Part shown: positions 19,724-45,213 of the stretch, in pieces
Numbering within the stretch: the stretch's first letter is position 1
How the letters are laid out: each line of letters starts with the position of its first letter
Virus record (IMG/VR): IMGVR_UViG_3300044730_000851
Span: 12,328 to 76,327 of that record
Origin: a virus
Length of the DNA: 64,000 nt
Strand: one strand, 5' to 3'
The notes under the pieces: generated by a model
Seen by the model: only the letters and a program-made list of their open reading frames with translations
Told to the model about the DNA's origin: nothing
Database searches by the model: none
Position numbers and translations under genes: made by a program

Positions 19724-20608
19724 CTAGACCTGTTCCAGCATGAAGTCGTCCACGGTGCTGCCCTGTCCCGAGCCAGACGGCGTGACGATGATTCCCGCTC
19801 TCTTGGTCGGTGAATCGACAGTCGCAGTCGTGCTGGCCACTGACTGCGTCTTGGCGGTGTTCGAGAACGCAGTGGCCGTGACCGTGTTACCGGACACTAC
19901 CGCGCGCACTGCGGCAATAGCCGCTGACGCCTGAGCGCTGGCTACCGTTGTGACCGTCGTTGCCACTGACCTGAGGACTCGGATGAAGTTGGTCACCGTT
20001 GTGGTAGACCCGGTACACGTTTGGCAAGACTCGGAAGAGCATGTGTCGCAGACATCGTTGCCGCACAAGGATCGGCACACTTGGATGTACGTGGTGACAT
20101 ACTGCGAGCAGCACTCATCGCAGTACTCATCGCAAGCATCAGTGTTGGTTACTCCTGGAGGGCACACTCGGTAACAACATGATGCGTAGGCCACGCAGAT
20201 GAACTCAGGACTTAGGTAGCAGTCACAACCGTACGTGACATACCGGCAGTTGCAGGAAAAGTAGTTGGTGGTGCAGTTGCAGGAGAACGTAAACGACGTG
20301 GTCGTGCTGGTTTGCTGGGATGTGACTGCCCACCAGTTACTGCTGTCAGTCACCCAAAAGGCCACGCCCGCGCCATTGCTGACCGAGGCACTTAGCGACA
20401 CAGCAGTGTTGCGCGTGTCAACGACCGCCATTGGGTACAACGATGGGGCAGCGCTACTGGAAGCCGCATTTGAGACAACATCGAACTGAGCAGATCCGAG
20501 TGCTCTCCAGGGATCGCCGAGCGTATTGGCATTGGAACGGTTGAAGAGGTCGGTGAAGGTCAGGAAACCGCGTCGCACCGCGTTGGCGACGGATGCAGTG
20601 GACAGCAT
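19724..20608 (-). CDS. Putative fibre-tip/receptor-binding protein: beta-sandwich with a 20-Cys insert
   Basis: FTDLFNRSN...GVAFWVTDSSNWW and AGIIV...VDDF flank the Cys-rich segment; start MLSTAS coupled to the upstream stop (TAATG). Confidence 0.65.
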   Translation of the reverse strand: MLSTASVANAVRRGFLTFTDLFNRSNANTLGDPWRALGSAQFDVVSNAASSSAAPSLYPMAVVDTRNTAVSLSASVSNGAGVAFWVTDSSNWWAVTSQQTSTTTSFTFSCNCTTNYFSCNCRYVTYGCDCYLSPEFICVAYASCCYRVCPPGVTNTDACDEYCDECCSQYVTTYIQVCRSLCGNDVCDTCSSESCQTCTGSTTTVTNFIRVLRSVATTVTTVASAQASAAIAAVRAVVSGNTVTATAFSNTAKTQSVASTTATVDSPTKRAGIIVTPSGSGQGSTVDDFMLEQV

Positions 20609-21258
20609 TAGATTTCCGTCGTGTCCCCGAAGAGGACCCACTCGTCGGTTGACACTTTGATGAGTCCTGCCACGGCATACTGAGCCCTTGTCTTTGCACC
20701 TGACGGTGCCCGCAGGATCACGCCACTTGCGCCAGCCACAGTGACCTGACCCGCGCCTGTCTGCACGATGTCCACTCGCGTACCCACCGGAAGACTCAGT
20801 GAAGCGTTGGTGGGGAGGGTGATCGTGATCGCCGCTGCCGCCGCGCAGAGGACTGTTGTACCCGTCAACTCAGCGGCAAGCGTGAACGACGCTGTGCGGC
20901 TGGTAGTTGAGTTGGCTGGGTAGCGCCCACTGAATGACGCCGCAGTTACTGCGGCCGAGAAGGTGGCGCTGGTTCCTTCCAGCGCTCCCGTGAGAGTTCC
21001 TCCGGAGGTGTTGAACTTGGAGACGGCATGACTGGCAAGACCAGCCTCAATGTTGGTGAGCCGCGCAGTCAAGGTTAGGTGTGACGTCGGCTGGCCAAAC
21101 GCCCCACTCCAGGTAGACACAAGGAGACCGGTGCCCAGAGCCCGCTCGACGGCGGTGACTTCGTCCTGGAGAAGGTTGACGTGGTCTGCGAGTACGGTGT
21201 CCACAAGGTCCGTCTTGGACGCGTAGACACGTACGGAGTTGGGGAACAGCGCTGGCAT
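20608..21258 (-). CDS. Short fibre/adaptor protein
   Basis: ADHVNLLQDEV..VE N-terminus; C-terminal domain (PVGTRVDIVQTGAGQVT...RAQY...WVLFGD) homologous to the end of 41536..45213. Confidence 0.7.
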   Translation of the reverse strand: MPALFPNSVRVYASKTDLVDTVLADHVNLLQDEVTAVERALGTGLLVSTWSGAFGQPTSHLTLTARLTNIEAGLASHAVSKFNTSGGTLTGALEGTSATFSAAVTAASFSGRYPANSTTSRTASFTLAAELTGTTVLCAAAAAITITLPTNASLSLPVGTRVDIVQTGAGQVTVAGASGVILRAPSGAKTRAQYAVAGLIKVSTDEWVLFGDTTEI

Positions 21259-36526: not shown

Positions 36527-37093
36527 CTATTCCGCCCACCAGTGTCGCACGCGAGGGTGCTCTTCCTCAGGGGGAAGATCGTTCCAGAACGTCCTAACTG
36601 TGACCCTCAGGCCAGACTTAACGGAGGAGGTCTTGTGTAGGTACGGGATAGTTGACGGAAAGAACACGGTGCTGGGTGCTGTGGGTCGGTATTCAATACT
36701 GAGCCTAGGAAAGAAGAGAGACCCCCCTTCGTAGGACCCCGGATTGAGATACGAGACGGACGACGCAATGCGGTAGCGATCCCACTTCTGGTCGTAATGT
36801 TCCAAGATGACGCTTCCAGAGGACCCGCGCACAAGGAGCAACTCCTCGCGTTGTGTAAGGCGGCATCCAGCGAAGTCTCCGTAGTCCCGCGACAGTGTGG
36901 TTAGGTACTCGTCGTAGGCGTCCAGAACGTCTGCCCTTTCTGGTGGTGCTGCGGACAGATTGACGGCTTGGCTCGCGATTCCCTTGGGCTCTGCTGCGAG
37001 GTGCGCCATACCCAACAGGTCCTCAACGAGACTCGTAGGAATCTCATACTCGGCAACTCCGGGGAAGATCTGGTGTCGCCCAGACGCACTCAA
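36527..37093 (-). CDS. 2OG-Fe(II) oxygenase, prolyl-4-hydroxylase-like
   Basis: HYD...SYLN..YEGGSL.F...FFPS...YLH...V..GLR; TTG start overlaps the upstream stop. Confidence 0.85.
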   Translation of the reverse strand: MSASGRHQIFPGVAEYEIPTSLVEDLLGMAHLAAEPKGIASQAVNLSAAPPERADVLDAYDEYLTTLSRDYGDFAGCRLTQREELLLVRGSSGSVILEHYDQKWDRYRIASSVSYLNPGSYEGGSLFFPRLSIEYRPTAPSTVFFPSTIPYLHKTSSVKSGLRVTVRTFWNDLPPEEEHPRVRHWWAE

Positions 37094-37821
37094 CGGAACA
37101 CCTTCTGTTGGCGGTGCTGGTGCTGGTACCCCTGCTCCCACTCTGTTTTAAACACCTGGTCTCGGATCAGCAACTCTTCCTGATCCTCAACAAACACCTC
37201 GGACGTCCAAGACTGTCGTAAGAACGGAACGACACGCGCGATGGGGGTTCCAGAGGCAATAGTCCCATCGAAGGTCTCCCGCAACAGAAACGCTATGTTG
37301 GTTGGGGACCGCCAGGAGTCGGAATCGACAATGGCGCTGAAAGTACGGAACATGTCCACACCAAAGCCTTCTGGGTGCGTGATCAGCACGCTAACCCCCC
37401 TTGGGGTGTGGATAGTCCAGGGGTTAATCCACTTGTACGCACAGTTCGTGTCGAAGCCGGGCGGCACTGGGTACCTACCCAACTGCTCCCTGTCGAAAGT
37501 CCCAACCGCGCTGAGTACCCGCCGGGGCGCGGATGTAACAAATACGCGACCGCCAGACGCTCTACGAAAGTTCACGTCTACAGGCAGCCTCAGGATGTAG
37601 CCAGACATCAACGAATCTCGCGTAGGGGAGCAGCGCTTCACAGTTGGGGCAGATCCTCGGCCCTCTGTTCCATAGACAGCGGTTTCCCTCAGCCAGTTGG
37701 GTGCCATGGTGGCGGCGGCTGCGGGATGTGGTGCGTTATCGAAGTACCACTGATCGATAGCCCCAAAGCGCACCAGACCTACCGGTTTGTCCTCAGGGGA
37801 GGGGGACGTAGTGCTGCTCAT
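37090..37821 (-). CDS. DUF6065-like (dUTPase-like fold) protein, paralog 4
   Basis: TVKRCSP...GY, KWINPW.I.TPRGVSVLITHP, AIVDSD, SGTPI..VVPF.R..W. Confidence 0.75.
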   Translation of the reverse strand: MSSTTSPSPEDKPVGLVRFGAIDQWYFDNAPHPAAAATMAPNWLRETAVYGTEGRGSAPTVKRCSPTRDSLMSGYILRLPVDVNFRRASGGRVFVTSAPRRVLSAVGTFDREQLGRYPVPPGFDTNCAYKWINPWTIHTPRGVSVLITHPEGFGVDMFRTFSAIVDSDSWRSPTNIAFLLRETFDGTIASGTPIARVVPFLRQSWTSEVFVEDQEELLIRDQVFKTEWEQGYQHQHRQQKVFR

Positions 37822-38476
37822 TCTGTTTGTCCAAGGCTCTGAGCGGCGACACGTCATATGCGACCGTTATGCGGGGGCCTCCCCACGACCAGTCGCCCAT
37901 GGCGTGCGGCCACTTGCTCTCTCCGAGGATTGCTCGGTTGTTTCTGTTTTCCACTACGACGATATCTCCGTCAATGTTGTAGTGAGTCTGGGAAGGCTCG
38001 GCGGTCACCGCGTAGTACCCGTGAAACTGCGGCGCCCCCAGTGGTGAGTGTATGTGCCAGTCCAACTTTCCGGAATGTGCGTAATTGACGTTGAACCAAC
38101 CCTGGACCATGAACCGCTGAGATCGGAAGTTCAACTCGTAGTAGTCGCACGCCTCACGCGTCATCTCTCCGATAGCCAACAGCAGGTCATATACGTTTGA
38201 TTCATGGAACTGGAACACGTTGTAGTCTCGCCAGGCAACCGTGGAAAGGGACCCTGAGTCTTCCCACAGGCGCTTTCCGGATTCGGCTCCCGGGGTTGGA
38301 CGCCCAAGAGCGACTTCACTGTCCTGGGCCTCAAGGAGTCGGTACTTGGCGAGTAGAAAATCACTGAGGAACTGCGTATTAAGATCCAGGTCTCTAGTGA
38401 AGTGCTTGAACGGTTTGCTTGTCCGCGTGGGCAGCAGGGACCGTCGTCCGGTCAGCGGTACTTTTTGCTGTTCCAC
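37793..38476 (-). CDS. Putative 2OG-Fe(II)/cupin oxygenase
   Basis: QGWFNVN...DWHIH...HGYY...WPH...RITVAYD (HxH...H...R). Confidence 0.75.
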   Translation of the reverse strand: MEQQKVPLTGRRSLLPTRTSKPFKHFTRDLDLNTQFLSDFLLAKYRLLEAQDSEVALGRPTPGAESGKRLWEDSGSLSTVAWRDYNVFQFHESNVYDLLLAIGEMTREACDYYELNFRSQRFMVQGWFNVNYAHSGKLDWHIHSPLGAPQFHGYYAVTAEPSQTHYNIDGDIVVVENRNNRAILGESKWPHAMGDWSWGGPRITVAYDVSPLRALDKQNEQHYVPLP

Positions 38477-39177
38477 ACGTTCTCCTTGTAGTAGCCGTAG
38501 ATCTTGGTCCTCTTCTTCTCTAGGAGCATGGCCCCGCTCTCAGCCAACGCATGGTTGGTTTCCAACTTCCAGTCTTCCCGTTTAAACGGGAGCACTGTGA
38601 ACATAGGGGTACCTGAGGGGATTGTCCCCTCAAAGTCCTTGCGCAGAAAGAATGTGATGGCGTTGGGAGCCCACCATTGGTCAGTGTCTTGGACTCCGCT
38701 GTAGGTGATGAACGGAAGGTCATACCGGTTGAGTGGGTGCGTTATCAGACTCGAATACCCCGGAGGTGTTTTGAAGGCCCAGCGCATGTCCCAGATGTAG
38801 TGGGTGGGCCAGCAGCCAGCAGGTACTGGAACCTCGATGTAGCCCCGGGTTTCAATGGGGCGGACGATGGGGTCCTGCCAAGAGATGTGCGGTCCGTCGT
38901 CGTCCACGGCAACATCAATGTCTATAGGAGTGACGTAGTGATAACCGGTCGTCAGGGCGTCTAGAAACGGGGCGCAGTGCTTGAAACTCAGGTTGGCGGA
39001 GTCACGACCGTTCCTATTGCTGACCCCTAAGTCTCGCCTGTCATTCGATGTATGGAACAGGTACGCGTCTCGGTACCAGGCAGGTACCGACTCATAGGCC
39101 GGGCGCGGGGGTAGCGTGATGTCGCGGTACTGGTTGTTTGCGTACGTCTCGATGTGTAGAACTTCGTCCCCGCTCAT
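38452..39177 (-). CDS. DUF6065-like protein, paralog 3
   Basis: FKHCAPFLDALTTGY, W.FKTPPGYSSLITHPLNR, SGVQDTD, GTPM...PFKREDW. Confidence 0.8.
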   Translation of the reverse strand: MSGDEVLHIETYANNQYRDITLPPRPAYESVPAWYRDAYLFHTSNDRRDLGVSNRNGRDSANLSFKHCAPFLDALTTGYHYVTPIDIDVAVDDDGPHISWQDPIVRPIETRGYIEVPVPAGCWPTHYIWDMRWAFKTPPGYSSLITHPLNRYDLPFITYSGVQDTDQWWAPNAITFFLRKDFEGTIPSGTPMFTVLPFKREDWKLETNHALAESGAMLLEKKRTKIYGYYKENVWNSKKYR

Positions 39178-39917
39178 CGGTACTCCTTTCTCGACCAGAA
39201 GTTGCTCCGGTATCCGCCTGTGAATACCGACCTAATCCGAGAAGCCTGTCCGTCAATTAGGTCTGCGTCGTACTCTCCATGAATCGCGCTGCTCCAGGCC
39301 TCCCGAGCAAAGGGGACCACGACCGCTAACGGCGTGCCTTGCTTGATGACTCCTTGGACGCCGCGTCGCATGAGCAACGAGTACGCCCCATCCGGGGCGT
39401 ACTGATCGGTGTCCATGACCGCGGGGAGGACCTGCCAAGGGACATCGATTGAGTACGGAGGGTGCGTGATCATGACGCTGTAGCCGGGTGGGGTCAGGTA
39501 TCCCCACAGCGGGTGAATGCGGAAGAGGTCCTCGCAGTATTGTGCCCGGTCAAACGGCAACTCCGATACTTGCTGCCTGTCGTGAAGGCTGACGACCTTC
39601 CAAGACACGTTGCCCTTGGGCAACTGCCATCGAATCCGGTCTCCGGTGGTGTCAATCGAGATATCGACGGGTACCTTAAGTAGGTATCCGGTACTCAGTG
39701 CGTCGAGAACCGACGGGCACTTCTTGATGGTTTGATTGCCTTTACCGCCCTCGATCTTCATCGAGCCGCCCGCGTAGACGTCCTGTTCTCGCCACCATGC
39801 GGGGATGTTCTTGGACAGAGGCTCCGGCTTTGGGGCATACGTAGGGACACCGGGGGCCACCGGGAAGAACTGAATGATTTTGGACGGCTTACTCGAAGTA
39901 AACCTAGTACTCAGCAT
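39174..39917 (-). CDS. DUF6065-like protein, paralog 2
   Basis: TIKKCPSVLDALSTGY, TPPGYSVMITHP, VMDTD, QGTPL...PFAREAW. Confidence 0.8.
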   Translation of the reverse strand: MLSTRFTSSKPSKIIQFFPVAPGVPTYAPKPEPLSKNIPAWWREQDVYAGGSMKIEGGKGNQTIKKCPSVLDALSTGYLLKVPVDISIDTTGDRIRWQLPKGNVSWKVVSLHDRQQVSELPFDRAQYCEDLFRIHPLWGYLTPPGYSVMITHPPYSIDVPWQVLPAVMDTDQYAPDGAYSLLMRRGVQGVIKQGTPLAVVVPFAREAWSSAIHGEYDADLIDGQASRIRSVFTGGYRSNFWSRKEYR

Positions 39918-40656
39918 GGTCTGCGTTCTCGATTCTCGTTGGGGTTACGCGTAGTAGAGCGATTGGTGTGCCTCGCTTTATGACAACTGGATCATCTTCA
40001 GCACCCCGCTTCAGGAGGAACGGGAGGCCGAGAGGACCTGAAGGTGAGTGCGGCCAGGTGAGACGTGCATCTAACGTCCTGAAAGGGAGAGAGTTGTCGT
40101 CAACTGGGCTACGCACAACGACATCGCAATCGACAGTGGGGCTCCAGTAGATGAGCCACCGGTAGTGTGCGTCGAAATACCGATCGACTGGGAAGTCTCT
40201 CCTGTATCTGACTCCAGTAACGCGTCCTGCGGGCTGGAGCACTGTTCGTGATACAAGGTCCGCGGACTCCGTCCATTCGGTTCCTACGTCGCTGGGAATT
40301 CTTCGTGGTCGGATGAAGACATCGGCAAACAGCCGGACTTCGTACTCACCCCCGGCACTAGGCTCTGGCGCCCAACTGATTTCAGATACGACTCGGTTGT
40401 GCGGCCAAAACTCGTCTCCCCGAGCAAGGGCCTGACGTTGTAGGTCTTCATGAATCTTTCGCTGCCAAGCCTGTTCCTGGCTGAGGTGAGGGCTGACTGG
40501 AAGTTCCCCGCGGACGGCGGTTGGTTGTTGAAACTCGTTGTCGTTGGCCGACATTCTCTTGGACGGACGACCCAGCATGCGCTCACTTGTCTGCGGGAAA
40601 ATCGAGCGACGCCGAGTTTCCCCTCCAGGGTCGATTCGTTGGTGATCTGCAGTCAT
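39904..40656 (-). CDS. Divergent DUF6065-like protein, paralog 1
   Basis: C-terminal LPFRTL...LPFLL...IKRGTPIA resembles the downstream paralogs; start uncertain. Confidence 0.55.
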   Translation of the reverse strand: MTADHQRIDPGGETRRRSIFPQTSERMLGRPSKRMSANDNEFQQPTAVRGELPVSPHLSQEQAWQRKIHEDLQRQALARGDEFWPHNRVVSEISWAPEPSAGGEYEVRLFADVFIRPRRIPSDVGTEWTESADLVSRTVLQPAGRVTGVRYRRDFPVDRYFDAHYRWLIYWSPTVDCDVVVRSPVDDNSLPFRTLDARLTWPHSPSGPLGLPFLLKRGAEDDPVVIKRGTPIALLRVTPTRIENADHAEY

Positions 40657-40673
40657 GGCGAACGACTCGTTAC

Positions 40674-41507
40674 CTATGCGTCTTCGGGACCTATGCCGTT
40701 CCACGTCAGCATGTGTTCGGTGAAAAAGAGGTCGTACGGTTCACAGCGAAGTGAGATCACCTCGGTACCTGACGTGAGCGGGACCGACTCGTAAGTGAGG
40801 ATGGGTTCCCAGTCATTCACGGAACCGTCGTAGACGAGATCGGAAGGCTCCAACGAGTCAGCGCGAGTCAGGGTGTAGACATCATTCCTTCTTACAAGAA
40901 TGTAGTGACTCGGAGAGAACAGATCGCCATTGACGATATAGAGTTCGTCGACCGTAGACCTTGCGATGCTGGTGACTTCAGTCTCAACAAGTCCTAGGGA
41001 CGTGAACGAATCGGACTCCCAGGCGAGGGATCCGGACATCGCGGCTAGAAGCGCAGCGTCAGCGTCCGTGCCGAGTTCTTCGATGTTGAGTGAATAGAGA
41101 CGGTCGCCTACCTGGACGTCCTCGGCTCGGACGAGCCCCTCGGGCGTACGGACCATGGTGTCGGGGGCTACTGAGTAGTCGTGGTTGAACGAAAAGCCGA
41201 AGCCACCGTAGAAGCCGAAGCCACCGTAGAAGCCGAAGCCACCGTAGAAGCCGAAGCCAGGGTACACATAGTTCCAACGGCTGATCCCGACGGCCGACCC
41301 TCGCAGAACCACCGCTCCAGACGCGACTCCTTGGCTGATGACCTGCGTATCTATGCCGCTGTTGCTGGTGTTTGAGGTGGTCTCGCTACCCAGACTCAGA
41401 CCGACGTTGGTCAGGGCCGTGATCGCGTTCGCACGGGTCTGTCCGACAATGTTGGGGACCGTGGTTTTGCGCGGTCCGCCGCGGTCAAGGTTGCGTGATG
41501 TCGACAA
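40674..41507 (-). CDS. PASTA-like domain + (GFGFYG)n repeat + C-terminal Hint (intein-like) domain protein
   Basis: TVPNIVG...VISQ PASTA; repeat; SVAPDTMVRTPEG..AEDVQVGD (block A), FSPSHYILV (block B), V.SL.CEPYDLFF...LTWN (blocks F/G); RBS AGGAG. Confidence 0.85.
   Translation of the reverse strand: MSTSRNLDRGGPRKTTVPNIVGQTRANAITALTNVGLSLGSETTSNTSNSGIDTQVISQGVASGAVVLRGSAVGISRWNYVYPGFGFYGGFGFYGGFGFYGGFGFSFNHDYSVAPDTMVRTPEGLVRAEDVQVGDRLYSLNIEELGTDADAALLAAMSGSLAWESDSFTSLGLVETEVTSIARSTVDELYIVNGDLFSPSHYILVRRNDVYTLTRADSLEPSDLVYDGSVNDWEPILTYESVPLTSGTEVISLRCEPYDLFFTEHMLTWNGIGPEDA
41194..41259. repeat. Perfect 18-bp tandem repeat, 3.7 copies
   Basis: AAGCCGAAGCCACCGTAG x3 plus AAGCCGAAGCCA, encoding GFGFYG on the minus strand. 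Confidence 0.95.
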
Positions 41508-41535: not shown

Positions 41536-44500
41536 TTACGACAGGTCACCGGTCAGGACCCACACGTTGGCGGCCCGCTTCGTGAGCGTAGCCCCGGACC
41601 ACTGCGCGCGAAGGTTCAAACCTGGCGTCGCATTGATGGTCACACCGCCAGCGGCGGCAATGTTGACGCCACCGGCACCCACCCGCAGGAGGTGGATCTG
41701 AGTACCCACCTTGAAGTTGACGGTAGCGTCTGCTGCAACCGTGAACGTAAGCGCGGAACCGCTGTTCATCTCAATCATTCGTCCGGCGTCGCTCAGAACA
41801 AACTGATACGAAGCCGTCTTCTGGTCAATCACCACGGGGGCGTCCAGAACGTTACCGGCCGCCAGCGTGATGCCACCACCGGTCACTGACAAGCCGCCCG
41901 AAGAGATCGTGACAGTGGTGAGCGTCGGGGAGGTGCCGAACACCAGGGCCCCGCTGCCCGTCTCGTCCGAGATCACTCCGGCCAGTTGGGCGGATGTGGT
42001 GGCCGCGAACTGATTGAGCCCGCTGGTGGTCAGGCCGAGGCCGGTCGTGGCGTGAACGTGGTCCGCTCGGGCGTACCGGAGCGACGTGCCCACGGCAGCG
42101 GTGCCGAGTGCCGCGGGGGTTGCCGCCGAGGCCTGGCCCACAACAAACGCCGTGGTTGCCAACTGGGTGGTGTTGGTGTCTGCAGCGGCGGTTGGTGCTG
42201 CAGGAATACCCGTCAGGGTGGGCGATGCGATCGGTGCCTTCGCTGCAAGATCCGAAACCAGGCCCGTGATCGCGCTCTGCGCAAGTGCGATGTTCGTGCT
42301 GGAGACGCTCGTCACACGACCCTTGGCGTCAACTGTGATGGCCGGTACCGCAGTAGCGGAGCCGTACACTCCAGCAGTCACTCCAGAATTGGCAAGTGTC
42401 AGAGTGATACCAGTCGTTCCCGAACCGGTGGCGTCACCAGAGACAGAGATACTCTGGTTGGCCGTCAGGTACGTATTTGTGTCTAGGGACCACGTATCGG
42501 CGGCCGTCTTCCGTAGGATGCCGCTGGTACCTGCGAGGGCCGCGATGGCCGTGAGGTCGGCATCCAGAGGCTGCTTACCGGCCAGCGAATTCGTGAGTGT
42601 GGTCGCAAACGACGCATCATCGTTGATCGCGTCCGCGAGTTCGCTGAGGGTATTCAGGGCCGCGGGAGCGGCACCGATGAGGTCGCTGACGGCCCCAGTG
42701 ACGAATGCTGTGGTGGCCACCTGAGTGGTGTTGGTGCCCGCGGTAGCAGTGGGCGCGGTCGGAGTACCAGTCAACTCCGGAGACGCAAGCGACGCCTTAC
42801 CCGCAAGAGCCGATGCCAGGCCAGTGACCTGCGACTGCGTGATCGCGATATCTACCGACGACGCTGCCGTCACGCGACCCTTGCTGTCCACGGTGACCTG
42901 AGCCACCGAGTCGGCATCACCGTAGGTTCCCGAGTTTACGCCGCTGTTGGCTAGGGTGGCCGTGATGCTGGTGGCACCGGATCCGGTGATATCACCGCTC
43001 AGGGTCACTGTCTGGTTCCCGGTGAGGTACGTAGACGTGTCCAGCGACCATGTGTTGGCGGCCGTCTTCTTTAGCAGACCGCTGTTCGCCGAGATCTCGG
43101 CGATCGCGGTCAGGTCGCCATCGAGAGGCTGCTTTCCGCTGAGTGCCGTCTGCACCGTGGTGTGGAAGGACGGGTCATCGTTGATGGCCGCGGCCAGTTC
43201 GTCAAGGGTGTCAAGGCCAGACGGCGCTGAACCCCTGAGGCTGCTGATACTGGCATCGGTGTACGTGTTGGCAGCGCTTTCGGCGGCGTCGGCTTTGGAA
43301 GTTGCATCGGCAGCGGCGGTGGCTACTGCAGCACTTTCGGCAGCGTCCGCGTAGCCCTGAAGTGCGTTCGTGGCTGTAGCGATCTCTGCGTCAGTGTACC
43401 CGTTTGCAGCACTCTCGGCGGCGTCTGCCTTGGACTGAGCCCCGGCCGTGGTTTCAAGGAGCGACGTGTTCGCAATGCCGTGCACGTTGGTGGTGCTGGC
43501 GTTGTGGTTGCTCAAGGCCGTTCCAGCGCCATTCGCGGCGTTGGTAATCTGAGTGTTAAGGTTGGACATAGTGCTGTCGACGGCGCTGTTGATGGTGTTG
43601 TTTAGTACGACAACTTCCGCATCCGTGTAGTTGTTTGCTGCGGTTACTGCGTCGGTCTCCGCCTGATCCGCGTAGTCTTCAAGGTCACTTACTGCAGCCG
43701 CGAGATCACTTGCAGCCGTGCTGGCGACCGACGAAATCTGGCCCGCCACGGAAGTGGAGAACTCCGGGTCGTCATTGATCGCGGCTGCCAACTCGTTGAG
43801 GGTGTTCAGGAGTGACGGCGCGGCGTCGACGAGGCCAGAAACTGCCGCGTCCGCGTACGCCTTGGCGTCCACCTCAGCCTGATCGGCGTAGGCTTCAAGG
43901 GCAGCCGTCGCGGTAACAATCTCCGCATCGGTGTAGGCGTTCGCAGTGTTCACGGCGTCGATCTCAACCTGGTCGGCGTAAGCCTCAGCGGCCTCTCGCT
44001 GCCCGAACGCATAGGTCTGAGCAGCACTCAGTGCGTCTGCCTCAGCCTGATCGGCGTACGCCTCAAGAGCCGTCGTGGCTGCAGAGACTTCGGCGTCCGT
44101 GTAGGCGTTCGCTGCCGTGACGGCAGCACCTTCGGCAGCGTCCGTGTACGCCTCTAGAGCGTCCACTGCGTTAGCGAGCGTGCTATCCGTGTACGTCTGC
44201 GCGGCTGATGTGGCCGCTGACTGCGCTGCGTTCGCCTTGGTTGTGGCGTCAGTGGAGGCCGCAGATATGGCGGCCGCCTGCGCTGCGTTCGCCTTCGATG
44301 TCGCATCGGACGCTGCGGTCGATACGGCTGCGGCCTGTGCTGCGTTTGCCTTCGACGTAGCGTCTGCTGCGGCAGTAGAGATGGCAGCCGCTTGGGCAGC
44401 ATTGGCCTTGGATGTGGCATCGGTCGCAGAGGTGGCTACAGCGGCGGCCTGGGCAGCGTCCGCCTTGGAGGTGGCGTCTGCTGCAGCGGTTGATACGGCC

Positions 44501-45213
44501 GCGGCCTGGGCTGCATTGGCCTTGGATGTGGCATCTGCAGCGGCAGTAGCGACTGCGTCTGCCTCGGCCTGGTCTGCGTAATCTTCAAGATTGGCCACTG
44601 CGGTGGCGATATTCGTGGCGACGGTAGCCGCAAAGTTTTCGTCGTCGTTGATCGCAGCCGCAAGTTCGTTGAGAGTGTTAAGGGCTCCCGGTGCTGCCTG
44701 GATCAGGTCAGCGACCTGGGTGTCGGTGTACGCGTTTGCGGCAGCCTGAGCGGCGTTTGCTTTCGATGTCGCGTCGGCTGACGCGGTAGATACAGCCGCA
44801 GCCTGGGCAGAGTTAGCCTTAGACTGCGCTCCGGACTGAGTCTCCAGAAGAGCGGTGTTTGCAATGCCGTGGACATTCGTGGTTGCTGAAGTATGCGTGT
44901 TGAAGTTGCTGCTCAGCGTGACGACGGATGAGAAAAACGCTGGGTCATCATTGATTGCGTCTGCCAGTTCCCCAAGGCTGTTAAGGACCGACGGGGCGTC
45001 CCCGAGAATCCCAGCCACTGCTGCGTTCACAGCGGAGGTCACGTCCTCTGGCCGAGCGTTTGCGTACAGGAGCGTCGTCCATGCCGTGAGACCGTCACCC
45101 ACCTTAAACTTGCGAGTATCGAGTTCGATGCCGATCTCGCCCTGAGCCAGGATGGGATTCGCTGCGGTCCATGCAGCCGCGAGTCCTCGACGAATCTGAA
45201 TCTGAACAGCCAT
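41536..45213 (-). CDS. Long fibre protein with Mtd_N-type N-terminus
   Basis: QIQIRRG...W..ANPILAQGEIG.E.DT.KFKVGDG; 19-aa DATSKANAAQ repeats; five L.ELA.AINDD repeats; duplicated module of about 185 aa. Confidence 0.85.
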   Translation of the reverse strand: MAVQIQIRRGLAAAWTAANPILAQGEIGIELDTRKFKVGDGLTAWTTLLYANARPEDVTSAVNAAVAGILGDAPSVLNSLGELADAINDDPAFFSSVVTLSSNFNTHTSATTNVHGIANTALLETQSGAQSKANSAQAAAVSTASADATSKANAAQAAANAYTDTQVADLIQAAPGALNTLNELAAAINDDENFAATVATNIATAVANLEDYADQAEADAVATAAADATSKANAAQAAAVSTAAADATSKADAAQAAAVATSATDATSKANAAQAAAISTAAADATSKANAAQAAAVSTAASDATSKANAAQAAAISAASTDATTKANAAQSAATSAAQTYTDSTLANAVDALEAYTDAAEGAAVTAANAYTDAEVSAATTALEAYADQAEADALSAAQTYAFGQREAAEAYADQVEIDAVNTANAYTDAEIVTATAALEAYADQAEVDAKAYADAAVSGLVDAAPSLLNTLNELAAAINDDPEFSTSVAGQISSVASTAASDLAAAVSDLEDYADQAETDAVTAANNYTDAEVVVLNNTINSAVDSTMSNLNTQITNAANGAGTALSNHNASTTNVHGIANTSLLETTAGAQSKADAAESAANGYTDAEIATATNALQGYADAAESAAVATAAADATSKADAAESAANTYTDASISSLRGSAPSGLDTLDELAAAINDDPSFHTTVQTALSGKQPLDGDLTAIAEISANSGLLKKTAANTWSLDTSTYLTGNQTVTLSGDITGSGATSITATLANSGVNSGTYGDADSVAQVTVDSKGRVTAASSVDIAITQSQVTGLASALAGKASLASPELTGTPTAPTATAGTNTTQVATTAFVTGAVSDLIGAAPAALNTLSELADAINDDASFATTLTNSLAGKQPLDADLTAIAALAGTSGILRKTAADTWSLDTNTYLTANQSISVSGDATGSGTTGITLTLANSGVTAGVYGSATAVPAITVDAKGRVTSVSSTNIALAQSAITGLVSDLAAKAPIASPTLTGIPAAPTAAADTNTTQLATTAFVVGQASAATPAALGTAAVGTSLRYARADHVHATTGLGLTTSGLNQFAATTSAQLAGVISDETGSGALVFGTSPTLTTVTISSGGLSVTGGGITLAAGNVLDAPVVIDQKTASYQFVLSDAGRMIEMNSGSALTFTVAADATVNFKVGTQIHLLRVGAGGVNIAAAGGVTINATPGLNLRAQWSGATLTKRAANVWVLTGDLS

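Follow-up and report, generated by a model that had tools for sequence, protein, structure and literature searches.

A low-complexity tract joined to a C-terminal Hint domain and a block of enzyme-like genes in the tail-fibre region of a phage and its relatives

In Hedgehog and BUBL proteins, cholesterol or a lysine serves as the acceptor that resolves the (thio)ester. The Peptidase_S74 chaperone domains of tail spikes and fibres are found at the C-terminus and remove themselves at a Ser, and T-even phages carry a separate small adhesin gene of the gp38 type directly downstream of the fibre gene. Here, we describe a fibre-adjacent gene block from a 64,000-nt stretch of viral DNA (the window, i.e., the whole stretch analysed; positions 12,328-76,327 of the 76.3-kb IMG/VR record IMGVR_UViG_3300044730_000851), in which a 277-aa protein with a low-complexity repeat tract and a Hint domain (the repeat-Hint protein) is followed by six enzyme-like genes. 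A large, undescribed gene family of uncultured phages shares the arrangement [swappable binding domain]-[low-complexity Phe/Pro/Gly/Tyr tract]-[C-terminal Hint], and no description of a repeat-Hint/enzyme system was found in the literature on DUF6065, on Hint and tail fibres, or on BIL domains and phages. With a probability of roughly 50%, the product is a self-processing fibre accessory protein, the co-inherited enzymes acting on the tract or on the fibre during assembly. This proposal builds on what was observed: the folds of the domains, the conserved catalytic residues, the gene order, the size of the family and the agreement between tract and enzyme cassette.

All seven open reading frames (the repeat-Hint gene and the six enzyme-like genes) are located on the minus strand, and neighbouring frames overlap or are separated by no more than 17 nt. 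The repeat-Hint gene, its parts and the fibre gene are as follows:

41536-45213, minus strand: long tail-fibre gene, 1225 aa, directly upstream of the repeat-Hint gene (Pfam Mtd_N, E 3.4e-12)
40674-41507, minus strand: repeat-Hint protein, 277 aa, composed of PASTA, Gly/Phe/Tyr tract, BIL-type Hint and a 7-aa tail
41289-41462, minus strand: PASTA domain, residues 16-73 (Pfam PF03793, E 1.1e-7, 32.2 bits against a cut-off of 23.2)
41187-41264, minus strand: low-complexity tract Y82-F107, YPGF followed by GFYGGF units, predicted to be disordered
40698-41174, minus strand: Hint (BIL-like) domain S112-N270, assigned by Foldseek and residue conservation
40677-40697, minus strand: C-terminal tail GIGPEDA, the 7 residues after the Hint domain

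The repeat-Hint gene starts with TTG, 8 nt after AGGAG. Only 12 close homologs of its product were found in a word-indexed search; the AlphaFold model of the 277-aa protein, built on 12 homologs, has a predicted local distance difference test (pLDDT) score of 78. The PASTA region is modelled with a pLDDT of 83-91, and the presence of this domain suggests peptidoglycan as the ligand of the head. The tract, YPGFGFYGGFGFYGGFGFYGGFGFSF, is disordered in the model (pLDDT <50 over residues 83-109) and contains a single Pro, P83. At the DNA level, it is a perfect repeat with an 18-bp unit present in 3.7 copies (100% matches, 41194-41259), and the repeat copy number differs in a relative of 88% identity. 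A collagen-like reading of the tract was dropped, since Gly occupies each third residue only in some units (GFGFYG, GAFGAF).

Foldseek analysis of the Hint model revealed that its closest structure is the BIL domain of C. thermocellum (2LWY; E 8e-8, TMt 0.84). In total, 56 PDB matches were obtained at E<=1e-3, those listed being BIL domains, inteins and Hedgehog, and the structural matches include Tetrahymena BUBL BIL2 (6Y75), dozens of inteins and Hedgehog 1AT0. The key residues are present, namely Ser+1 (S112), T117, the S-x-x-H block S198-P-S-H201, and W269-N270. An earlier, sequence-only reading of this DNA had described the protein as PASTA, repeat and Hint, with the Hint domain directly behind the repeat; this architecture is borne out by the Pfam PASTA match, the perfect 18-bp repeat and the Foldseek fold, and the residues needed for N-terminal cleavage are intact as judged from fold and residue conservation. 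Residue 271 is Gly, so the Cys, Ser or Thr expected as the first C-extein residue of a canonical splicing intein is lacking, and, with only 7 residues after the Hint domain, the domain is not inserted within a conserved host protein either. A sterol-recognition region is also absent, as the protein stops 7 residues past N270.

The protein consists of a swappable binding head (PASTA here), a fast-evolving disordered Gly/Phe/Tyr tract and a C-terminal BIL-type Hint domain. Cleavage, the substrate and chemistry of the enzymes and the destination of the product are inferred. In the proposed mechanism, Ser112 would attack the carbonyl of Tyr111 in an N-to-O acyl shift aided by S198-x-x-H201, and the resulting ester at Tyr111 would then be resolved by water or another nucleophile. 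The Hint domain would depart, leaving a 111-residue PASTA-tract fragment that ends in the tract. The six downstream co-inherited accessory proteins would most likely modify or handle the tract or the adjoining fibre during virion assembly.

The sequence-only reading had cast the locus in the logic of ribosomally synthesised and post-translationally modified peptides (RiPPs). Indeed, a precursor, a self-protease and adjoining enzymes are all present, and, in a true RiPP-like pathway, the tract would serve as the core peptide, to be tailored, excised and set free as a small product able to diffuse. After Hint cleavage, however, the tract would stay on a folded PASTA (or, in relatives, FN3) domain, neither a further protease nor a cleavage site was found N-terminal of the tract, the "leader" reaches 600 aa with adhesin-like domains in relatives, and the gene always lies within fibre modules. 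Because the product, predicted to be a protein of 111 residues, keeps a folded domain (PASTA), the RiPP reading fails and is regarded as very improbable, and "RiPP-like" is an analogy only.

The family was sampled with 50 loci from a pattern scan of IMG/VR and 19 loci found by the DUF6065-like anchor, which gave 50 distinct Hint domains, that of the window included. A Hint-only profile matched 847 clusters (50% identity) at E<=1e-10 among 1.84 billion representatives. All 50 proteins share the same plan, a variable N-terminal part followed by a tandem low-complexity tract and Hint. The N-terminal parts in relatives are PASTA, FN3-like domains or Thr/Pro- and Cys-rich regions, and the portion before the tract may comprise up to ~600 aa of adhesin-like domains, while the tract units include GFSHYA, GFYH, NPGF, TPFGF, GAFGAF, SPFGVFGF, APPGFF, PVIIAE, YYAAP and GV. 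The Hint domain lies <=25 aa from the C-terminus in 97 of 108 proteins. Compared with residues -140 to -100, the 40 aa before Hint have a lower complexity (2.99 vs 3.37 bits, p 1.4e-8), and they are enriched 3.9x in Phe and 2.2x in Pro. The sequence-only reading had suggested a survey of Hint proteins with low-complexity aromatic repeats, and low-complexity tracts of aromatic or proline type before a C-terminal Hint domain are found family-wide.

Within the 50 Hint domains, the +1 residue is Ser in 46 and Cys in 3, and T117 (49), [S/T]198 (46) and H201 (49) are almost invariant. The last Hint residue is Asp (38/50) or Asn (11/50), and the residue after it is variable. Since the catalytic positions are kept and the following residue is not conserved, the chemistry predicted from these residues fits N-terminal cleavage or acyl transfer, not splicing.

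Some members of the family deserve separate mention. A tblastn search of the precursor against cultured phages gave a Hint protein of an Erwinia jumbo phage as the sole match, and no Hint gene was found by this search in T4-like cyanophages. The Erwinia protein (L135:3002-4441), a more remote case, is gp111 of phage pEa_SNUABM_33, annotated as a virion structural protein of the tail module; collagen-like G-X-Y repeats take up ~100 aa of it, and its C-terminal Hint domain has Cys+1 and T-H-E-H and ends in HN, with Thr as the next residue. Some database proteins (P0211, P0136) show 6-10 separate Hint-profile matches per chain, suggesting tandem Hint-like arrays. Loci L023 and L025 carry two repeat-Hint genes each, with TPFGF tracts and ~5.5 kb apart, so that the module is present in duplicate.

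The gene order around the repeat-Hint gene is conserved. In 23 of 29 distinct loci, a conserved C-terminal fibre domain ends <=54 nt upstream of the Hint gene, and the Hint gene is followed by the same enzyme families, often after just 19-38 nt. The head can be exchanged with tract, Hint and cassette kept, as seen in L031 (PASTA) versus L026 and L035 (FN3). Thus, the coupled repeat-Hint and enzyme block noted earlier in the window is conserved and fibre-adjacent in dozens of phage contigs. In the window, the cassette forms part of the late structural block, falling between the genes for fibre and sheath, and comprises the following genes:

39904-40656, minus strand: e266, degenerate DUF6065-like paralog, cluster c8 (hhalign against the alignment of the paralogs, 89.7%, E 1.9e-6)
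39174-39917, minus strand: e247, DUF6065-like with a predicted dUTPase-like fold, c1, 247 aa (phrog_7084, E 4.4e-36)
38452-39177, minus strand: e241, DUF6065-like paralog, c1, 241 aa (phrog_7084, E 9.5e-29)
37793-38476, minus strand: e227, 2OG-FeII_Oxy_5-like double-stranded beta-helix, c2, 227 aa (phrog_2696, E 3e-7)
37090-37857, minus strand: e255, DUF6065-like paralog, c1, 255 aa (phrog_7084, E 4.6e-28)
36527-37141, minus strand: e204, prolyl-hydroxylase-type 2-oxoglutarate (2OG)-Fe(II) oxygenase, c0, 204 aa (Pfam 2OG-FeII_Oxy_3, E 6.6e-6)

Across the loci, the cassette families are c0 (prolyl 4-hydroxylase (P4H) type), c1 and c33 (DUF6065-like), c2 (resembling the 227-aa protein), c8 (degenerate paralog), c3, c31 (PF11397) and c17 (a Pol-beta-type nucleotidyltransferase). 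Family c31, which belongs to the Skp1-type hydroxyproline GlcNAc-transferase family, is added in relatives with Thr/Pro-containing tracts. A class II ribonucleotide reductase gene is found directly after the cassette in many loci; in the virus studied here, it is located outside the window, ~47 kb from the cassette (G000:C1:411-2489; family hidden Markov model (HMM) score 1086), and the cassette is still beside the fibre and Hint genes. Family c3 (L015:11049-11594 and relatives, 181 aa) was found only with Pro/Phe tracts and has no Pfam match; its conserved RVYVxPKYRKKGL looks like motif A of acetyltransferases (GNAT), and hhalign revealed no link between c3 and the paralogs.

The prolyl-hydroxylase-like oxygenase predicted earlier was confirmed by profile, e204 passing the cut-off of 2OG-FeII_Oxy_3 (PF13640; 27.4 bits, cut-off 27) with H115-x-D117...H169...R179, the basic 2OG-binding residue included. 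The nearest solved relatives of its family are protein prolyl hydroxylases, the chlorovirus one among them: the c0 family profile matches P3H1 at 4e-13, the B. anthracis P4H at 5e-13 and the PBCV-1 P4H at 1e-9, and TET-like enzymes score far below these. The other oxygenase-like protein, e227, has the motif H141-x-H143...H and no Pfam match, even at E<=10. Its Atlas structure matches cyanophage 2OG-FeII_Oxy_5 clusters (95% PF13759) with a TM of 0.77. Neither a link of the 227-aa family to the P4H-type family by hhalign (0.9%) nor a useful hit of its profile against PDB sequences was obtained.

The remaining four genes had been taken for DUF6065-like paralogs, one of them divergent. This relationship stands: three match phrog_7084, and e266, the 266-aa protein, which starts at an ATG at 40656 within a longer GTG frame extending to 40704, is a remote, degenerate relative of these three and lacks the D-T-D motif. 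The paralogs of the window fall below the cut-off of Pfam DUF6065 (PF19541), the top one reaching 12.1 bits vs 26.6 (11.1 bits in the genome search; e241, E 0.13). DUF6065 is found in 12-23% of the members of the nearest Atlas clusters of the three paralogs, and some relatives in their homology cluster do reach PF19541. By these sequence comparisons, the window paralogs are distant relatives of DUF6065 and not members of it.

A fold of oxygenase or cupin type did not hold for these proteins. The model of e247 (pLDDT 86) was compared with 48,161 chains by VIA-align; the top match is a dUTPase with Z 10.6 (root-mean-square deviation 3.0, 120 aligned), and the top 22 matches comprise only dUTPases, dCTP deaminases and herpesvirus dUTPase-like proteins (Z 10.6-5.8), the next one having Z 4.3. 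Foldseek against PDB and BFVD also gives a dUTPase-like fold for the paralog. A cupin reading was ruled out, with cupins at Z <=4 vs 10.6 for dUTPases. The paralog family has the invariants K65, C67, D72, G77-Y78, W138, S147, D169-x-D171, G194-T195-P196, R205 and Y236; as the His of THP is not among them, the family does not have a 2-His-1-carboxylate site. Its C-terminus is helical, and the Gly-rich motif V is absent by inspection. The profile of the DUF6065-like family gave nothing useful against PDB sequences.

For comparison of tract and cassette, 44 distinct loci with >=5 kb of downstream sequence were used. P4H-type genes become more numerous as the Pro fraction of the tract rises (rho 0.58), and the two Pro-richest tracts (L041 and L052) are accompanied by five P4H-type genes each. 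Family c8 is confined to the seven loci whose tracts are of the Pro-free Gly/Phe/His/Tyr type, and the gene order there is c8-c1-c1-c2 throughout. The window is a member of this Pro-free aromatic subtype, its cassette having one extra c1 and one c0 gene beyond c8-c1-c1-c2. The sequence-only reading had called for a test of covariation, and the enzyme set does differ by tract type; a separation from common descent was not achieved. Tract type mostly tracks the Hint phylogeny, and the independent-pairs test, with just 5 usable pairs and a median p = 1, has no power. For these reasons, the match between cassette and tract may be plain co-inheritance of a block.

This possible co-inheritance weighs against the proposed reading (self-processing, with enzymes acting on the tract or fibre), and so do several other observations. 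The Hint domain of the window scores below the cut-off of Pfam Hint_2 (14.5 bits vs 28.4, E 0.049). With P83 as the only Pro, the P4H-type gene of the window is left without an obvious site in its own tract. The fold of the DUF6065-like paralog, as modelled, is dUTPase-like (beta-clip), which is a nucleotide-enzyme fold. The enzyme families also occur on their own. The DUF6065-like anchor retrieved at least 592 stretches from IMG/VR, and, in 61 of the best 80 loci, which were examined, there was no Hint gene within 7 kb. Cassettes of the type c1-c1-c0-c0 in such loci adjoin genes for carbamoyltransferase, PA14/FN3 adhesin-like proteins, Hsp20 or a CHAP lysin. In haloarchaeal myoviruses, DUF6065-like homologs are located beside thymidylate synthase and DNA polymerase, and, in cyanophage S-RIM44, the interval from a giant structural protein to the neck genes contains DUF6065-like and 2OG-FeII_Oxy_5-like genes. 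The sequence-only reading had named the occurrence of the enzymes independently of a repeat-Hint gene as evidence to the contrary, and the 61 of 80 best loci, the haloarchaeal viruses and the cyanophages are in part such evidence.

These findings raise the possibility that the enzymes of the dUTPase superfamily and the 2OG oxygenases have the nucleotide pool or DNA bases as their target and merely adjoin the fibre module, the repeat-Hint protein being an unrelated fibre accessory protein. Such a role would agree with the dUTPase-like fold of the paralogs and with their invariant D-[T/S]-D, which, from the alignment, seems to resemble dUTPase motif III. A canonical dUTPase is missing as well, PF00692 having no match anywhere in the 76-kb record, paralogs included. 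The Hint-less cassettes, the halovirus homolog next to thymidylate synthase and DNA polymerase, and the ribonucleotide reductase that the cassette abuts in many relatives point in the same direction, as does the proposal of DNA repair or 2OG turnover as the role of cyanophage 2OG oxygenases (PMC3037559). On the other hand, the ribonucleotide reductase is 47 kb away in the present virus, whose cassette keeps its place beside the fibre and Hint genes, in the fibre-sheath interval of the late structural block. The oxygenase is of the protein prolyl-hydroxylase type, with TET-like enzymes far lower, and a family of protein hydroxyproline GlcNAc-transferases is added in relatives. In addition, the paralogs fail the dUTPase Pfam model, are without the Gly-rich motif V and have invariants of their own (K65-x-C67), and the type of cassette varies with the type of tract. 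A nucleotide- or DNA-directed role is therefore considered unlikely.

Alternatively, the Hint domain may be no more than a cap for folding or solubility that is removed from a tract prone to aggregation, by analogy with the self-cleaving chaperone domains at the C-terminus of tail spikes, and the enzymes would decorate not the tract but the long fibre or further proteins of the virion. Such a cap would suit the hydrophobic, disordered tract and the consistent position of Hint at the C-terminus with a short tail; the Erwinia jumbo-phage virion structural protein combines collagen-like repeats with a C-terminal Hint domain (Cys+1, HN then T), and the genes upstream of Hint-less cassettes encode PA14/FN3 adhesin-like proteins with low-complexity linkers. 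It is, however, the Hint gene to which the enzyme genes are most tightly linked (gaps of 19-38 nt), and enzyme type follows tract composition, not any fibre feature examined. Decoration of the fibre or other virion proteins, with Hint as a cap, is accordingly judged rather improbable.

A more far-reaching form of the self-processing accessory protein was also considered, in which, as in Hedgehog or BUBL, the Hint ester may link the C-terminus of the tract covalently to a virion component (e.g., the fibre tip). The swappable heads (PASTA, FN3) would then be carried on an enzyme-stiffened linker, and the dUTPase-fold proteins would be a new protein-modifying class matched to Gly/aromatic tracts, for example by transfer of a nucleotide-derived group from the DUF6065-like proteins to Tyr, His or Ser. 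A complex prediction with three fibre C-terminal domains and the Hint domain gave a score of 0.00, from which no inference was drawn. This extended version is speculative and its probability is low. Display of the heads on the virion would make the module a plug-in host-range device, in which the length of the linker varies by repeat slippage.

One Hint-less locus (L113:4574-5143) encodes a 189-aa FN3 protein with (YYAAPQ)n, located after a fibre gene and before PF11397 and DUF6065-like genes, and looks like a Hint-less version of the module. As for the surroundings of the locus in the window, the 1225-aa fibre protein combines an N-terminus of Mtd_N type with Ala-rich repeats of 19/38 aa and, at the C-terminus, a conserved domain of ~125 aa. 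The 57/114-bp repeats of its gene (44212-44549) are diverged (71-78% matches), unlike the perfect 18-bp repeat of the next gene. The conserved C-terminal fibre domain is also found in a 216-aa protein (20608-21258, minus strand; HMM E 3.7e-13), which is encoded among the baseplate genes and has no Pfam match. The block had been placed between fibre and head closure; the fibre gene is indeed upstream, and the head-closure label of the downstream 194-aa gene was not confirmed, as this gene matched no family. Sheath, baseplate, portal and terminase are all encoded in the record. The major capsid protein shares 67% identity with that of the Streptomyces phages BRock and LuckySocke, and, on the basis of this similarity, the host is likely an actinobacterium. 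Megablast of the region against cultured phages gave no match, and a search of 185,579 prokaryote genomes did not reveal any relative.

Many 2OG oxygenases and DUF6065-like genes of aquatic phages are orphans, and the repeat-Hint family offers a candidate substrate encoded alongside them. The window adds a Pro-free subtype, the cassette of which is dominated by dUTPase-fold proteins rather than hydroxylases, and for that reason it is a natural place to learn the function of DUF6065-like proteins.

With regard to known systems, the repeat-Hint protein recalls Peptidase_S74 and gp38-type proteins in being a fibre-region protein with a putatively self-removing C-terminal domain, or a small gene product encoded after the fibre; it differs in its Hint fold and has no sequence relationship to them, and its attachment to the fibre is putative. 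With BIL domains (2LWY), it shares the N-terminal Ser/Cys nucleophile, the T/S-x-x-H block, and the lack of both a homing endonuclease and an insertion in a conserved host protein. Unlike in BIL proteins, the phage domain forms the extreme C-terminus of a fibre-region protein, always behind a low-complexity Phe/Pro/Gly/Tyr tract, is missed by Pfam models (E 0.049), and mostly ends in Asp, not Asn. 2OG-FeII_Oxy_5-like and DUF6065-like families also recur in the multi-copy 2OG gene clusters of T4-like cyanophages (Sullivan et al. 2010, PMC3037559), where no Hint gene was detected by tblastn; the role of these oxygenases is left unexplained in the cyanophage literature. The paralogs resemble dUTPases and dCTP deaminases in fold (Z 10.6) and in a D-x-D at the place of motif III, and differ from dUTPases and DUF6065 in being ~100 aa longer, in the helical C-terminus and in their own invariants K65, C67, Y78, W138 and R205. 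As in PBCV-1 with its Pro-rich repeats, the P4H of which (5C5T) is matched by the c0 profile at 1e-9, a virus-encoded P4H-type 2OG oxygenase adjoins the virus's own repeat proteins, and, as in the hydroxyproline-GlcNAc pathway of Skp1 (PhyA/Gnt1), relatives carry a PF11397 GlcNAc-transferase; in contrast to both, the tract of the window is nearly Pro-free, the cassette consists mostly of dUTPase-fold proteins, and hydroxylation is putative. Finally, the repeat-Hint protein shares with Hedgehog (1AT0) and BUBL BIL2 (6Y75), both of which are structural matches, an N-terminal functional domain followed by a C-terminal Hint domain, and is set apart from them by the lack of a sterol-recognition region, the 7-aa tail, the Ser nucleophile and an acceptor that is putative only. 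If the proposed self-processing is true, it would bring a Hedgehog-style step into phage fibre biology.

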